From the IMG/VR virus record IMGVR_UViG_3300043425_001634, positions 27,508-91,507 of that record: 64,000 nucleotides of DNA; one strand, written 5' to 3'. The position numbers and the translations under genes are program-made. Under the pieces are notes generated by a model that saw only the letters and a list, made by a program, of their open reading frames with translations, ran no database searches and was not told where the DNA came from. This document shows positions 13,462-64,000 of the stretch, piece after piece; the first letter of the stretch is position 1, and each line of letters begins with the position of its first letter. The stretch is from a virus.

Positions 13462-14898
13462 TCAAGGAGCCAACTTAGCTTTTTTCGCTCTTTTTTTAGA
13501 ATACCATTCAGCAATTTCAGGCACCCATGCTTGGAAATGCGGCCAAATTAAATCGCAGAGTTTCTGACATTCTAACTGGGCATCTTTTTTCCAGCGCATA
13601 TCTAATAAATGCATCAGCGATCGCACATTTAAAGACATGACCCAATGTTGTCGCACATCAAAGGGAATAATCCCTCTAGCGTGTTCTTCCGCTGCCCCTT
13701 CAGAGATCAGTTGTTGATAGCGTTTTGCTGCTTCTAAACACCAAGCTAAATCGCGATCGCGCTGTGCTTGAGTATAGTCATAACGCTTTCCTTGGCGATC
13801 GGTGTAACTGCCCACGGGACGCAGATAAAATACTTCTTCGAGATCGCGTTTTCCTGTCGCCGCATCAACGATCCGATTTCCCGTATAGCGGTTAGAGTTA
13901 TGCACCACCATACCATTGGCGACAAAATTATGCCAAGGACCTTCTACTTCTAGGTCATAAGTCATTTCAAATCCCAGGAATTCAACGCTTTTTACCTTAA
14001 TTGGATGCGATCGGAGTTTATTCCCTGGTGATTTCGGTTTAGGTTGCCAATTTTTTGCTTCGAGAATCGGTTGATAATTTTTGGCAAACTCCGCCTCTTT
14101 GTTATTTTTCTGTTCTAGAAACTCTTTATTCCGATAAAGTCCATTGCCTGCCACTGCCATGCCATTACATAAGACCCAGCAATTTTTAATCATGTTAATT
14201 ACCTGACCATTTTCGGCTGTCATTAAACCGACCGCTTCCCCCATTGTTTGCCAGCCGAATGTGGTAAATAAGCGGTGATTGGTCGTACAATCTAAGGCTT
14301 TACCATCTTCTAAAGTTAGGCGATAAACAGGTTGAATCCCTTTAGCCATCACATCCTTAATATGTCCGAACTCAAAAAAGCCAGTGGTTTCATTCAGAAC
14401 CCTTAGCCGCATTTTTTTGATTCGGGTTTTGCCATCACGACGATATTCTCCAGTGGGTTCTCCGTTTCGACCTTGTTTTAATCGTTGGCGAATCGCTTTT
14501 TTGCCATTCGTCCATAACTCGTAAAGTTCCGCAATTTTGATTTTGCGTAAACTGCCACTAGCATGAACAAATGTCACCTCAGTATTTCCCGCCAGACACT
14601 GCACGTCGAAAGAAATTCCTACGCGGTGAGTTCTAATTTGCTGCATCACACTATGAGGAAAATATCCACAATTAAAAACAATGGCAGGGTGTTCGCAGCT
14701 ACCAAAGTGTCCGCGATCGCCTGCCAATAATCTTTTTACAGCAATTTCTCCGCACTTGCTTTCTGATGGCCATTTGTCCAACTTAGATAACCACTCATCT
14801 ATTACATATTCTTCGCTGTAATCCTGGTGCATTGCTGCATAAATAATTTGCTGAGGATTCGCAGCTTTAGATAGCACTTCTACTCGAAATTTTTCCAT
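13462..14898 (-). CDS. thyX: FAD-dependent thymidylate synthase containing an intein
   Basis: GHFGSCEH, QIRTHRVGISFDVQ|...|SNRY, EHARGIIP, NVRSLMHLLDMR. Confidence 0.92.
   Translation of the reverse strand: MEKFRVEVLSKAANPQQIIYAAMHQDYSEEYVIDEWLSKLDKWPSESKCGEIAVKRLLAGDRGHFGSCEHPAIVFNCGYFPHSVMQQIRTHRVGISFDVQCLAGNTEVTFVHASGSLRKIKIAELYELWTNGKKAIRQRLKQGRNGEPTGEYRRDGKTRIKKMRLRVLNETTGFFEFGHIKDVMAKGIQPVYRLTLEDGKALDCTTNHRLFTTFGWQTMGEAVGLMTAENGQVINMIKNCWVLCNGMAVAGNGLYRNKEFLEQKNNKEAEFAKNYQPILEAKNWQPKPKSPGNKLRSHPIKVKSVEFLGFEMTYDLEVEGPWHNFVANGMVVHNSNRYTGNRIVDAATGKRDLEEVFYLRPVGSYTDRQGKRYDYTQAQRDRDLAWCLEAAKRYQQLISEGAAEEHARGIIPFDVRQHWVMSLNVRSLMHLLDMRWKKDAQLECQKLCDLIWPHFQAWVPEIAEWYSKKRAKKAKLAP
13897..14598 (-). 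mobile_element. intein (234 aa) in ThyX
   Basis: Starts CLAGNTEV; block B TTNHRLFT; ends TYDLEVEGPWHNFVANGMVVHN followed by Ser. Confidence 0.92.
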
Positions 14899-33221: not shown

Positions 33222-33273
33222 TCGCAAAACTTTGTTAAAATTACAGTTATCACCTACCACTCTGGAGTTACCT

Positions 33274-34410
33274 ATGAAATTTACTTGCAAACAATCTGAT
33301 TTTAATGTAGCGCTATCTGCCGTCAGCCGCGCTATTCCTTCTCAGCCAAGTCATCCGATATTGGCTAATATTTTGATTAAAATAAAAGAAAAACAGTCGA
33401 TTCAAGTGATGGCTTATGACTTGAGTCTGGGTATTTTTGCGACTTTTCTTGCTGAAGTAGAAGACGATGATCGAAGCTGCATTACTTTACCAGCTAAATT
33501 ATTGACTAGCATAGTGTCTCACTTATCTGATGAAGATATTACCTTAGAATCTTTGCCAGGAACAAATATAGTGGAGATTACTAGCTCTACAGGAAAATAT
33601 CAAATTCAAGGTCTGGATGCCGAAGAATACCCCGCCTTACCTGATGTCAACAATCAAAATTCTTTGACGTTACCAGTTGAATTTTTTAATCAGGGATTAA
33701 ATGCTGCATTATTCGCTGTTAGTCCGGATGAAACAAAGCGGGTATTGACAGGATTGCATTTAATTGTTTCTCTCGAAAGATTAGAATTTGCTGCCACTGA
33801 CGGCCATCGACTCGCAATGATTGAGATACCTAGAGATGTCGATTCAATTGAAATGGAAGACGCAGATTTTTTTGAGGCTACAATTCCAGGTCGAGCATTA
33901 AAAGAATTGGCAAAGATAATTGGCTCAAGTAATGCCGAATCTTTGTCCATAGCATTTGAATCAAATCAAATCGCTTTTGGCATTGGAGAACAAAAAATGA
34001 TCAGCCGAATTCTTAAGGGCAAATACCCAGATTATAAGCAATTGATACCCACTCAATTCAATAAAACAGTGACAATTAATCGAAAAAAAATTATTGGCGC
34101 ATTAGAGCGAATTTCGATTTTGACTGCAACTTGTGCTCTTTTGCGTATCAGCGAATCGGATCAGTGTGTTTATGTTACCTCTGAAGCTAAAGATATCGGC
34201 ATTGGAGAAGAAATCGTTTTTGCCCAAGTAACAGGAGGCGAACTAAGTTTAAGCCTTGCCCCTAAATACGCCATTGAATCTTTAAAGCACTTAGAGGCAG
34301 AAGAAGTGCAAATTCATATTAACTCTGCTAAATCTCCAGTTGTTTTTACCCATCTAACTGGAGCAAGTGTAGTTCATCTGTTAATGCCTATCCAATCGCG
34401 ATCGCTATAA
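33274..34410 (+). CDS. dnaN: DNA polymerase III beta sliding clamp
   Basis: HPILANIL, AYDLSLGI, FAATDGHRLA, G.YPDYKQLIP, HLLMP. Confidence 0.93.
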   Translation: MKFTCKQSDFNVALSAVSRAIPSQPSHPILANILIKIKEKQSIQVMAYDLSLGIFATFLAEVEDDDRSCITLPAKLLTSIVSHLSDEDITLESLPGTNIVEITSSTGKYQIQGLDAEEYPALPDVNNQNSLTLPVEFFNQGLNAALFAVSPDETKRVLTGLHLIVSLERLEFAATDGHRLAMIEIPRDVDSIEMEDADFFEATIPGRALKELAKIIGSSNAESLSIAFESNQIAFGIGEQKMISRILKGKYPDYKQLIPTQFNKTVTINRKKIIGALERISILTATCALLRISESDQCVYVTSEAKDIGIGEEIVFAQVTGGELSLSLAPKYAIESLKHLEAEEVQIHINSAKSPVVFTHLTGASVVHLLMPIQSRSL

Positions 34411-54749: not shown

Positions 54750-55622
54750 TTAGTTAATTTCTAAAGAATCAACTAAGTCCGACAAATAATCGAAGAAGTT
54801 GTTTGTCCGTTTTTTCTGTTTTTTCTGTTTTTTCTGTTGTAGCTCATTATATCGCCTAGAGTTTTCGGCATTGAATAGACCAGGATCTATTCCGAGTTCT
54901 TTATCTAAAATGAACTCAATCAACCTGTCTCGACATCGATCGATTAACGGTTTTAAACACAAAATAGCTTCATTTTCATTGCTTTCGTTCACAGACAAGA
55001 CAAATGGAAAGTTTTTCTGGTGAACTTCTCTCAGACCCAGCTTGATATAATCCAAATTGCTATCCATGCAGTAAAGCCACAACGTACTAAATAATACGTT
55101 GTAGTCGGCCAACAACGCATATTTCGTTTTTGCTATGTCCTCCTTTTTTAGCTCCAGGAAGTGTTCCTCCGAGGGAATATACATAGAGGAGTATTTGTAA
55201 AAAATATCGGAATTTTGAACAGCATATTGCTGCTCTGTTAAATACTTCTGCCAAGAAGTAATTCTGCCTTCCTCTCGTTCTTCAAGATAAAGGTGTATTG
55301 CCAATTTACTTCCTGGGAAATCATTAAGACCCGTGGGAAATATGATATTGTCCGCATAAGTGTCCACAAGGTGATATCCCCAAGAACATGGGGGTACTAC
55401 TCCCAAACCATTAATCCATCCGCCTGCGTCAACTTTAAACCAAGCTAACCTTCCGCGAATCTGACCCTTTCTCTTTCCGCGACTGTAGCGACCAACTATC
55501 TCTACAATTTCCTGCTCTGAAAGACCTAGCTTCTTTTGAGCTAGATCAATTCCAAACTCGCTATTTAGATAGGCACTTTTGTCTACTATCTCTGCGCGAA
55601 AAGCGTGTTCTCTTCTTGCCAT
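54750..55622 (-). CDS. hypothetical protein
   Basis: 290-aa ORF; 9-bp (QKK)x3 repeat near the end. Confidence 0.7.
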   Translation of the reverse strand: MARREHAFRAEIVDKSAYLNSEFGIDLAQKKLGLSEQEIVEIVGRYSRGKRKGQIRGRLAWFKVDAGGWINGLGVVPPCSWGYHLVDTYADNIIFPTGLNDFPGSKLAIHLYLEEREEGRITSWQKYLTEQQYAVQNSDIFYKYSSMYIPSEEHFLELKKEDIAKTKYALLADYNVLFSTLWLYCMDSNLDYIKLGLREVHQKNFPFVLSVNESNENEAILCLKPLIDRCRDRLIEFILDKELGIDPGLFNAENSRRYNELQQKKQKKQKKRTNNFFDYLSDLVDSLEIN

Positions 55623-55767
55623 TGTCGATCAAGGCTGAAATAGCCTCGGTGAAATACTTTACTCAATAATCGCATAACTTCAGTCTGCTGTCCAGGTCTT
55701 AACGATCCTATTTTAACAACAGGTAACATATTTGTTACAGGCAACAACAAAATAAATGACAAAGTGC

Positions 55768-55797
55768 TTGCCAAAATCAGGAAAGATATGATAGAAT
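55768..55797 (+). promoter_or_regulatory. sigma70-type promoter for the putative ncRNA
   Basis: TTGCCA-N18-TAGAAT with extended TG; predicted start about 55804. Confidence 0.65.
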
Positions 55798-55803
55798 TAA
55801 TTC

Positions 55804-56320
55804 GGGAATAAGGATTTCTTTGTTCCCATCCGAGAGTAGTCCGGGGAATCCGGCTGAACTCTCGTACCTCTACCGGCGGCTATTAAGCCGCAAGCGGATT
55901 ACGGGTATCTGATTAAATTGCCGGGGCAATTCTCCCCCGACCGGGAAACCGGGCTGATATGAAAGCAAGAGATTTAGTCAGGTGGCTAGGGATGGCCGGT
56001 AAGTGCGAGGCGTCGTCTAATGAAAATAAGACAAAAAATACTCGGTTGTGGGGCTCAACACCGGCTATCCACGTAAATAGGCTCCTGTGGTAAATACGCA
56101 GAGAAATCTAAAAGGGAACAGACTCTTGAATGAAATAGTTCAAATAGCCAAGAATAACTGTTCTTGTGTCGTTTAGATCAGAGGAAAAGGGCGGCTCTCT
56201 TAGGGGAATTAATTAGCAAGAATTACTGAACCCGGCTTGTTACTGGACCAAGGATTTAAGTTGAAAAAACTAAATAATTAAACCTTATATTTTTTACTGC
56301 TTTTAAAAGCGGTCAATAAA
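55804..56320 (+). ncRNA. putative large structured non-coding RNA
   Basis: No ORF >=60 aa; nested helices with G-U pairs, GAAA tetraloops and multiway junctions; 3' end uncertain. Confidence 0.65.
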
Positions 56321-56586
56321 TTTTGACCCTTGATTGGCAGTTACGCAACACTACGTCTTTTAAGATTTAGTGAGATTTGCTGTGTTTAAAAATATTTTTT
56401 TAGTAAGAAATAAGGGTAATGGGGGATAGAATATTGTTTTTGAGTGACGGTTGAAGTGATCGCGGATTAAATTCGCCCCATTTCAGATGTCCAAGGTAAA
56501 AAGACAAGCGATCGCCCCGCATCTTGAGGGATAAAGGTTTTAGGTGAGCCAATCTCCCAAAGGCAATAGGTTTGAGGTGAAAGAGG

Positions 56587-56636
56587 ATTTGTTTAATTTC
56601 CCTATATAAGGCTATATATAGGGAAATTAAACAAAT
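56587..56636. repeat. 22-bp-arm AT-rich palindrome (candidate origin)
   Basis: ATTTGTTTAATTTCCCTATATA-N6-TATATAGGGAAATTAAACAAAT; homologous to 16684..16729. Confidence 0.75.
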
Positions 56637-56937
56637 TAAACCTACTCACTCACTCTTATCCTCTTAATCCTGGGGCGGGTCTTGTCACCCAAACAGGTTT
56701 TTGTTCACCTTGATCCGTAGGGCGGCTGGCGACGATGTGTGGTGGACTAAATGTCTCTAAACAATTCCTTGCCATTGCCTTAAGCCGGAGCGTGATCACG
56801 GTTGGGTTATTTTCAACCTGTGGAGGTGGCTGACATAAGGCGTCAAAATATAAGAAAAATTTATTCACAAAAAAACAGACCCGGAATAGCCCTGGTCTGT
56901 GATTGTATGTTTTTTATTTGATTATTGTTTTTTTTGA

Positions 56938-57594: not shown

Positions 57595-58366
57595 TTTGTA
57601 AGCCGCGCCCCCGTCAGGGGCTACCGAAATCGCTACATCTTATTTGTTCATCCGGTGTTACGCCGGGTAGTGGTTTCGAGCGTTAGTCGCACTTTTTCCA
57701 TACAACAGGAACCACAGATTTGTCTGCTATTGGATCAAGATAGGGAGACTTGTCCTTTGACACATAAACGTTACCTGTGCTGTTGACAAATAATTCACCA
57801 GAATTAAACGCTGTGTAGCGATCTTGATACCATTGCCCGTTAAACTCACACCCGTTTTCTGAACAATGAGCAATTGCCTCGGCTTCGGAAGCGTAAAAGG
57901 CATTATATCGCCCTGATTCATAAGTCGCATATACAGTAGACTCATTAATCTCAATCTGCTCTTGCGAAGAGCAAGAGCGAAAACGATCGATAGCAGTGGC
58001 AGCAATGCTTTGACTATTCATAATATTTTCTCCGTTTGTTTCTTTCATGACTGTTGTTTCTTGATTTTGTAAGCCGCGCCCCCGTCAGGGGCTACCGAAA
58101 TCGCTACATCTTATTTGTTCATCCGGTGTTACGCCGGGTAGTGGTTTCGGTGGCTGTTGTTTCTTGATTTTGTAAGCCGCGCCCCCGTCAGGGGCTACCG
58201 AAATCGCTACATCTTATTTGTTCATCCGGTGTTACGCCGGGTAGTGGTTTCGGTGGCTTTCTTTTTGCCATGTTCTATTGACTTTGTAAGCCGCGCCCCC
58301 GTCAGGGGCTACCGAAATCGCTACATCTTATTTGTTCATCCGGTGTTACGCCGGGTAGTGGTTTCG
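57595..58366 (-). repeat. four identical 84-bp direct repeats
   Basis: Copies at 57595-57678, 58066-58149, 58169-58252 and 58283-58366. Confidence 0.95.
57683..58048 (-). CDS. hypothetical protein bracketed by 84-bp repeats
   Basis: 121 aa; probable start at the second ATG (58021) after GGAG. Confidence 0.7.
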   Translation of the reverse strand: MKETNGENIMNSQSIAATAIDRFRSCSSQEQIEINESTVYATYESGRYNAFYASEAEAIAHCSENGCEFNGQWYQDRYTAFNSGELFVNSTGNVYVSKDKSPYLDPIADKSVVPVVWKKCD

Positions 58367-58391
58367 GTGGCTTTCTTTTTGCCATGTTCTA

Positions 58392-61225: not shown

Positions 61226-61770
61226 AGCTTCTGCAATTCTTTAAAAAGCTTTAATCTGGTTTTTTCGGATCCGTGCGATTTCACATATAGGCAGTAATCA
61301 AAATATGAGAATCCCTTGATCCTCATGTATTCGTTGGGGTGATCCCTTAAAAGGAGATCGTCCTTTTTTGTCTCTATTAAAGCAATCAAATTTTCTAGCC
61401 TTGACTGCTTTTTAGTTTTTTCCAGTCCTTTTATGGCACTGTTTACTTTCGCCGTGATCGGATCTGAAAGGTCAAAAGCCTTTTTAATACAGTCAGATCC
61501 AACCTTAAATACTAATCCGTCGCTAGATTGTAGGCTGAATTCAAACTTCAATCCGTTACCGCAATAATCGCAGCATCCCACGGGAGTTATATGTCCGTTG
61601 GGGTAAGTGTAGATTTTTTCTTTTACCCCTAGATAGGAGTATGGATATTTGCCTAGTCCCTTTTTCTCGAATGGGTGCAATGCCCCTAGCTTTAACTCGT
61701 CTATGATTTTTTCCAGTTCTTTAAAAAACTGGATTTTTCTTAATTCTTTTGTCATTCTTTTTTTCCACAA
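61222..61770 (-). CDS. hypothetical protein with Cys motif
   Basis: CDYCG..LK......SSDG..FKVGSDCI. Confidence 0.7.
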   Translation of the reverse strand: MWKKRMTKELRKIQFFKELEKIIDELKLGALHPFEKKGLGKYPYSYLGVKEKIYTYPNGHITPVGCCDYCGNGLKFEFSLQSSDGLVFKVGSDCIKKAFDLSDPITAKVNSAIKGLEKTKKQSRLENLIALIETKKDDLLLRDHPNEYMRIKGFSYFDYCLYVKSHGSEKTRLKLFKELQKL

Positions 61771-62903
61771 TTAACAGTTTTGACTACCATTTTATGATCA
61801 GCGACATTAATAGTGGTTACGGATTTATTTTCTTTACTCATAATTTCATGGGTTTCTATTTCCATCTTTATCATTCCTTTATTGATAGAATGATCAACCT
61901 TCATGGAACCCACTTTTCTAATGGCTTCTAATAAATACCTGGGATTTACAGAAACATTAATCTCAGATTCAATGACCGCAAGGTTAGTTATTGACAATTG
62001 CTGATTTAGATCCATATCCCCGTCAATAATTTTTATGGACAGGGTATCACTGCTTAAGGTGATATCAACAGGATTGTGTTTATATGCTTGACTGTTCGTT
62101 TGAGACAATACTTTGGTTAATAAAATTTTATTAACCAAAAATCCTTTAATATTTAGGCAGTTTATCTCAGGGTCGATCATTAAAGATTTAATGACGTTAA
62201 CGACCGATTCGATATTTTTAATTTCGGCATCCGATCTCTCTGTTTTTACAATCCAATTGCCAATACTCAGTAATTGAATAGAGTGATCTGCCGTGGCTTC
62301 AATCCGTAGTGATTTATCACCATCTTTAACAGATTTGATAAATTCAATTATCAGCGGGTTAAAACTCGCAACACAACCATCCGTTAAGGAATCTGGTAAT
62401 TCATATTTAGCAACTCTATGACCATCACAACTGGCAATACAGCTATTGATTATGTAGAGATTTTTTAACTTAGCTGCTTTGTCGGATTTATTATTGGCAC
62501 GAAATGGCTCTATTAATTTTATGCCGTTTAAAAATTCCTCTAAATTTGTACAGTAATTAGAAAAATTATTGTCAGTAGATTTTACTTTGGTGGTGGGAAT
62601 AAATCTAACTAAGATATCTTGTATTTTTGCCAGGTTTCTGGCAAAAATTGATAGCTCAATACAACTAGATTCGCTGTATTCTGTTGATATTCGCTTAAAT
62701 TTTTCAGCTTCAATGAAAATTGAAAAATTTCTATCAGCAGGTGTCACTATATCGATATTAGCGATATAGCTTATGTTTCCATAAGTAACAACTAAATTAG
62801 GGTTATGTTGATCGATGTTTGTATCGATCTGAATGTATTTGCCATGAGAAGCGAAATTTTCCGCCTCTAGAATTTTGAAAAAATTAGCAGTGTTAATTAG
62901 CAT
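61752..62903 (-). CDS. divergent second beta-clamp (DnaN-like) protein
   Basis: 383 aa; SCDGHRVA and VNPRYLLEAI match clamp motifs ATDGHRLA and N..Y....L. Confidence 0.7.
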   Translation of the reverse strand: MLINTANFFKILEAENFASHGKYIQIDTNIDQHNPNLVVTYGNISYIANIDIVTPADRNFSIFIEAEKFKRISTEYSESSCIELSIFARNLAKIQDILVRFIPTTKVKSTDNNFSNYCTNLEEFLNGIKLIEPFRANNKSDKAAKLKNLYIINSCIASCDGHRVAKYELPDSLTDGCVASFNPLIIEFIKSVKDGDKSLRIEATADHSIQLLSIGNWIVKTERSDAEIKNIESVVNVIKSLMIDPEINCLNIKGFLVNKILLTKVLSQTNSQAYKHNPVDITLSSDTLSIKIIDGDMDLNQQLSITNLAVIESEINVSVNPRYLLEAIRKVGSMKVDHSINKGMIKMEIETHEIMSKENKSVTTINVADHKMVVKTVNCGKKE

Positions 62904-63672: not shown

Positions 63673-64000
63673 TTACGCTCCGATCAACTCCACAAGTTCA
63701 GTATCAGTTAATCCCCGGCGGAAATCCACGATCGCATCATTTATGATGCTTATCGCTAGGCATTGATGCTCGACGACCCAAAGCATCCCATAGCTATTTA
63801 AAAGCCACTGGGATTTAACGTTGTTTAATTTTTTGATGTCATCTTTGATGGCATTAATATCAAAATTAAAAGTAGTTCGTTTATAAGCGATCGCGGTGGT
63901 GGATTCGGAGGCGATCGCGGTGGTGGATTCGGAGGCGATCGCGGTGGTGGATTCGGAGGCGATCGCGGTGGTGGATTCGGAGGCGATCGCGGTGGTGGAT
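63673..64000 (-). CDS. hypothetical protein, partial, with SESTTAIA tandem repeats
   Basis: Open frame from the window end to TAA at 63673-63675. Confidence 0.55.
63888..64000. repeat. 24-bp tandem repeat containing HIP1
   Basis: (GCGATCGCGGTGGTGGATTCGGAG) x at least 4.7; runs off the window. Confidence 0.95.

Follow-up and report, generated by a model that had tools for sequence, protein, structure and literature searches.

A candidate lineage-restricted structured non-coding RNA in the largest ORF-free gap in the genome of an uncultured cyanophage

In a window of 64,000 nucleotides (bases 27508-91507 of the 91,507-bp IMG/VR record IMGVR_UViG_3300043425_001634), we identified a candidate phage non-coding RNA that appears restricted to a single lineage and that would consist of a rightward non-coding transcript with a folded 5' domain. 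We tentatively prefer this explanation of the locus and put its probability at roughly 0.45. Support at the sequence level comes from the features of the locus, an excess of folding, the lack of coding potential, the lack of a known family, and local conservation; the transcription of this RNA, its existence as a discrete molecule, and its function we infer. In the mechanism that we propose, an extended -10 promoter of the host type (55768-55797) would drive transcription rightwards, against the flanking leftward genes, and the transcript would start near 55804 and extend to at least about 56080, possibly as far as the hairpin at 56587-56636. A 5'-terminal hairpin, two more hairpins, and a multi-branch domain with a GAAA tetraloop would form within the first ~180-280 nt of this transcript. 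The product would be a stand-alone non-coding RNA in which the folded 5' domain is the functional part, most likely binding a protein of the host or the phage, early in infection, as a scaffold or decoy, and the 5' hairpin may shield the RNA from decay that depends on the 5' end. A bolder version, in which the locus represents a new lineage-restricted class of cyanophage non-coding RNA of ~280 nt, made early as a protein-binding decoy or scaffold (e.g., against host defence) and perhaps with the neighboring protein P0002 as its partner, is one that we consider doubtful, with the odds clearly against it. The features of the locus are collected in Table 1.

Table 1. Features of the candidate locus and its surroundings (positions in the window; helices as predicted)
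Feature	Position	Strand	Remarks
P0002, 290 aa, divergently transcribed	54750-55622	-	middle allele apparently swapped in relative
Sigma-70-type promoter, TTGCCA-N18-TAGAAT, extended -10 TG	55768-55797	+	predicted start ~55804
H1, 10-bp hairpin at predicted 5' end (GGGAAUAAGG/CUUUGUUCCC)	55804-55827	+	pair probability 0.98-1.0 in both variants
H2, 7-bp stem, bulges, CCGG/CCGG stem, GGAAU loop	55831-55864	+	pair probability 0.74-0.99
H3, hairpin GCGGCU-AUUA-AGCCGC on 3-bp base	55873-55897	+	in MFE, centroid, and consensus
H4, 12-13-bp stem closing multi-branch domain with three hairpins (one CCGG-GAAA-CCGG)	55907-55983	+	pair probability 0.97-1.0 in both variants
Variable region	55984-56072	+	in the window, 11-bp helix H5 (55990-56000/56060-56070)
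A-rich 3' part	56083-56320	+	no excess structure; 98.7% identical to L002
Purine-rich non-coding continuation	56321-56587	+	z = -0.51; 55% purine; one HIP1 site at 56508
Perfect 22-bp inverted repeat, 6-nt loop, then T-rich tract on - strand	56587-56636	-

Source genome, promoter, and gene-free gap

The HIP1 octamer GCGATCGC occurs 59 times in the 91.5 kb of this genome versus ~0.5 copies expected, and the host of this uncultured phage is therefore almost certainly a cyanobacterium. The large terminase of the phage shares 99% identity with those of two other IMG/VR contigs, and all others in IMG/VR and in a cultured-phage collection are at most 45% identical. The only relatives found for the locus itself are likewise two IMG/VR contigs, 3300043443_000811 and 3300047553_000984, which are ~98% identical to it; the comparison sequences, L002 and L003, are identical to each other at the locus, so that two sequence variants were available in all. 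ORFs cover 92% of the 91,507-bp genome. Several other observations were made on the same record. A tandem array of a 24-bp unit, GCGATCGCGGTGGTGGATTCGGAG, with HIP1 in every unit, occupies both ends of the record (63887-64000 of the window and the genome start), and it contains the 111-bp "direct terminal repeat", so that a tandem repeat may be what underlies the completeness call. At 58051-58391, units of 103-114 bp with GC-rich hairpins inside them are repeated in tandem, in 2-3 copies that match at 91-99%. A ThyX (Thy1) gene at 13462-14898 on the - strand is split by an intein splicing domain (Pfam PF14890, E = 1.7e-12). Two sliding-clamp genes were detected (33232-34410 and 61752-62903), one of them unmistakably DnaN, with its three domains all present, and the other strongly diverged, its Pfam matches all below threshold. 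The unmistakable DnaN is only ~25% identical to the proteins found in a genome collection and so is not host-like, and the DnaN scan of this collection gave matches only from Bacteroidota and Pseudomonadota.

No ORF of at least 60 aa is present across 55775-56655, which agrees with the ORF-free stretch reported by the first-pass annotation, and no other gap of this kind in the 91,507-bp genome is as large. The two ORFs that border it (62 and 70 aa) are probably spurious, and the true gap would then be 55623-56937. The near-consensus promoter that had been proposed at the left end of the stretch is also there: it matches 10 of 12 positions plus the TG, and it is the sole zero-mismatch match to TTGMCA-N18-TANAAT in the 64-kb window. 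It is unchanged in L002, and nine substitutions lie just upstream of it, in 55626-55745. A canonical + strand terminator for the candidate RNA was not found, the weak hairpin at 56296-56313 being without a proper U-tract. The inverted repeat at 56587-56636 shows 100% conservation in L002; it probably terminates the leftward operon whose last gene is P0003, and the + strand transcript is likely to reach no further than this repeat.

Base composition also sets the region apart. GC content is 50-53% at 55800-56100 versus ~40% in the flanks, forming a GC island, and the stretch at 56240-56420 (30-35% GC) is the most AT-rich DNA of the neighborhood. The + strand is 55.6% purine over 55803-56590, which places this segment in the top 0.6% of 790-nt windows, whereas the flanking leftward genes show the opposite composition (44-50% purine on the + strand). 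Such purine richness fits a rightward transcript that reaches the hairpin at 56587-56636, and it is possible that 56321-56587 is still within this transcript.

The neighboring gene P0002 differs between the variants. Its middle part (about aa 47-225) is ~50% identical to the protein of the sister contigs, whereas the DNA outside the exchanged segment is ~98% identical in the relative; within the gene, 29% of the positions in 55395-55483 differ, mostly at third codon positions. The middle of P0002 looks like an exchanged specificity allele. Searches of Pfam, PHROG, PDB, and ESM Atlas gave no lead to a family or fold for P0002, and a comparison with 5.8 billion proteins gave no relatives of either flanking protein beyond the lineage.

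Predicted fold and variation among relatives

Folding statistics place the excess of structure at the 5' end of the predicted transcript. For 55803-56082, the + strand reached z = -3.77, with none of 200 shuffles folding as well, and the - strand z = -2.49; for the whole of 55800-56320 (521 nt), the values were -2.96 (+) and -1.55 (-). The 3' part of the + strand (56083-56320) folds no better than its shuffles (z = -0.20), the same strand at 56321-56590 gave z = -0.51, and a sliding folding scan agrees that the excess is limited to the first ~280 nt. The description of the region as ~500 nt of highly structured RNA is thus overstated: it holds for the ~280 nt of 55803-56082 but not for 56083-56320. 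Likewise, the comparison with shuffled controls that the first-pass annotation had suggested favors 55803-56082, with a strand bias, but not 56083-56590, and its argument that G-U pairs point to the + strand survives only as the modest gap between z = -3.77 and z = -2.49. As a yardstick we used 126 windows of the same size from the start of the same genome, which have a mean z of -0.77 (sd 1.47); z is -3 or lower in 6% of them and -4 or lower in 3%. The candidate segment is in the tail of the z distribution of its genome, where it is not unique.

All of the helices that had been named in the first-pass annotation are present in the sequence at the positions assigned to them. Those in the 3' part (CTGTG/CGCAG, AGA-GAAA-TCT, and CAAGAAT/GTTCTTG) are at chance level, as the z of that segment indicates, and the TGGCTA/TAGCCA pairing that had been suggested to close a larger domain has a predicted pair probability of 0. 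In the window's own sequence, H1, H2, H4, and H5 have pair probabilities of 0.87-1.0. H4 is the best-defined element, with zero substitutions versus the relative, and the sole substitution in H1, at 55809, changes a U-G pair to C-G. The upper hairpin of H2 has a pair probability of at least 0.97 in both variants and the lower stem 0.74-0.95; considering that the RNAalifold consensus replaces this lower stem with long-range pairings to 56003-56045, the lower stem is ambiguous. The variable region folds differently in the two variants: in L002, two hairpins are predicted in place of H5, one with a GGGA loop at 55984-55997 and the other at 56048-56072, and the pair probability of H5 drops from 0.99 in the window's sequence to 0.00, G56064C abolishing this helix. 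The overall architecture is not robust, since the consensus and the single-sequence fold do not agree, and the elements that stay stable in all predictions are limited to H1, H3, the upper hairpin of H2, and the multi-branch domain of H4. A loop-loop contact between GGAAU (55845-55849) and AUUCU (55929-55933) is possible in the modelled fold.

Comparison of the two variants shows that 55803-56320 carries eight differences in 518 positions (1.5%), whereas its non-coding flanks carry 24 in 556 (4.3%; Fisher p = 0.011). The stretch 55746-56018, which includes the promoter and H1-H4, contains a single substitution, namely the U-G to C-G change in H1, and four of the five substitutions in 55803-56100 fall within 55984-56072. 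The lower divergence of 55803-56320 could reflect recombination history, the region being mosaic, and the location of the locus in a recombination-prone accessory region weakens the argument from conservation. The RNAalifold consensus of the two variants retains all pairs and includes a double change, from C-G to G-C, at 56054/56064, which sits in the alternative hairpin. When the same five substitutions were placed randomly, 38% of 300 trials gave an equal or better consensus energy, implying that the substitution pattern is no evidence for structure; the double change at 56054/56064 was rejected as a proof of structure on this basis. As the homologues are all ~98% identical, they provide no covariation.

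Further homologues were sought in several collections. A blastn search in distant mode against INPHARED phages found none, and blastn against PLSDB plasmids gave AT-rich chance matches only. Scans of viral contigs, by protein or with exact or loop-only patterns, returned no relative of the locus beyond the two known contigs, and pattern scans of genome contigs and metagenome contigs revealed no further relatives. A 181-nt covariance model of the locus, R1, had no matches in 19 terminase-related viral records, a Nostoc plasmid, or the Pseudanabaena phages Pan1-Pan5, and it found a single copy in the phage's own genome. Paralogous copies or iterons were rejected, R1 being single-copy in the genome and 55600-56580 being free of iterons and tandem repeats.

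Alternative explanations of the gap

The main rival explanation is that the gap is a non-functional or merely regulatory mosaic spacer between two leftward units, in which the promoter-like site and the helices would be incidental or remnants of recombination and would yield no discrete functional RNA. Promoter-like sites are indeed not enriched in the region (5 found versus 3.4 expected), z values of about -3 to -4 occur in 3-6% of genome windows, the permutation test gave no structural signal in the substitution pattern, H5 is lost in the relative, all searches failed to find relatives beyond the two ~98% identical contigs, and recombination breakpoints adjoin the locus. However, ~1.3 kb of idle DNA is rarely kept by phages, and here it would be the largest gap in a genome densely covered by ORFs; moreover, 55803-56320 is more conserved than its non-coding flanks, and the GC island and the strand-specific asymmetries in purine content and folding coincide with the direction of the promoter. 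On balance, we regard a mere spacer as somewhat unlikely. It might also be that transcription itself is functional, the + strand promoter being directed against the upstream leftward operon as an insulator or through interference, or that a long antisense or leader RNA controls P0002 or the read-through of the P0003 operon, with the fold merely stabilising the transcript. We consider this improbable: no opposite-strand gene is overlapped in 55804-56636, complementarity to the rest of the genome never exceeds 13 nt, and the multi-branch domain seems too elaborate for a mere stabiliser, although the candidate faces a strong - strand terminator (56587-56636) in convergent orientation and points away from the P0002 promoters at 55738-55666, its structure is confined to the 5' end as in a stabilising 5' hairpin, and its purine skew reaches the hairpin. 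An RNA acting in trans as an antisense to phage genes was rejected because the longest complementarity (13 nt) is at chance level.

Two further explanations were considered. ColE1 RNA II and the T7 primary origin offer a comparison for a transcription-activated replication origin, in which a structured G-rich transcript would enter the AT-rich stretch at 56240-56420 and prime or open the origin. A strong promoter, GC-rich DNA of positive GC skew, and AT-rich DNA follow each other here in an order that would suit such an arrangement, as would its location in the largest non-coding region of the genome, but the region 55600-56580 lacks iterons and tandem repeats, the gap has neither a cluster of DnaA-box-like sites nor a turning point of the cumulative GC skew, and the replication genes are located in other parts of the genome. 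An origin at this site is decidedly improbable. It is hardly credible that the region instead holds one or more unrecognised small protein genes or a decayed gene. Short + strand ORFs of 30, 44, 29, and 21 aa do exist in the gap, but their lengths are as expected for random sequence, and versus the relative the 44-aa ORF has three non-synonymous changes and one synonymous change, while both changes in the 21-aa ORF are at codon position 1 or 2. The short frames are thus not conserved at the protein level, and a conserved small protein was rejected. The reading that we prefer remains a lineage-restricted non-coding RNA with a folded 5' domain. As a single-lineage candidate, its main value is to offer a clearly delimited target, 55768-56082 on the + strand, for mapping transcripts.

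Comparison with known RNA families

The first-pass annotation could not assign the candidate to a known class, and the search that it had proposed led to the same outcome: cmscan with Rfam 15 gave no match at gathering score over the entire window. At E <= 10, the region 55500-56700 yielded only chance matches to miRNA or sRNA models of at most 20 bits, mostly on the hairpin at 56587-56636. None of OLE, HEARO, RNase P, tmRNA, group I/II introns, 6S, and riboswitches was matched in Rfam 15, the cyano_tmRNA model was not found, and ARAGORN detected no tRNA or tmRNA in the 64-kb window. Identity with a known RNA family, tRNA, or tmRNA was rejected in the absence of Rfam or ARAGORN matches. For GOLLD (RF02032, gathering score 150 bits), the locus had no match and the best score in the genome was 5 bits, elsewhere; for ROOL (RF03087, threshold 99.1 bits), cmscan gave no match at E <= 10, and a separate explicit search gave none either, with control genomes also giving none.

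GOLLD and ROOL are large ornate RNAs that are often carried by phages or prophages and form RNA-only cages (PMC12286853). The candidate resembles them in being phage-borne, non-coding, and multi-helix, with its own predicted transcription unit and a function that is not known. It differs from them in size (~280 nt structured here versus model lengths of 416 positions for GOLLD and 574 for ROOL) and in having neither a conserved family nor covariation. The suggestion that it is an RNA of the GOLLD/ROOL kind therefore stands as far as a phage-borne candidate outside any family is meant, but not in the sense of a match to either model or of comparable structured length. In addition, GOLLD often adjoins tRNA genes in phages or prophages, whereas no tRNA gene is near the candidate according to ARAGORN in the 64-kb window.

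Structured RNA candidates of 29-151 nt have also been reported from intergenic regions of IMG/VR, with significant covariation and at least three unique matches required (PMC10690425). Our locus shares with these candidates an intergenic location in an uncultured IMG/VR phage, a predicted structure, and the lack of an Rfam family; with two variants and no covariation, it would fail that pipeline. Among marine T4-like cyanophages, the manA, wcaG, and PhotoRC motifs are structured RNAs whose function is unknown or regulatory (Weinberg et al. 2010, PMC2864571). None of these motifs matched the candidate at E <= 10, and its phage, with a HIP1-rich genome of 91.5 kb, is not of the marine T4-like type; like them, however, the candidate is encoded by a cyanophage and is predicted to be structured. 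Should the candidate prove real, the small set of structured RNAs from freshwater cyanophages would gain one outside the known families, and the impression left by the literature on GOLLD and ROOL, of many unclassified folded RNAs in phages, would grow stronger.
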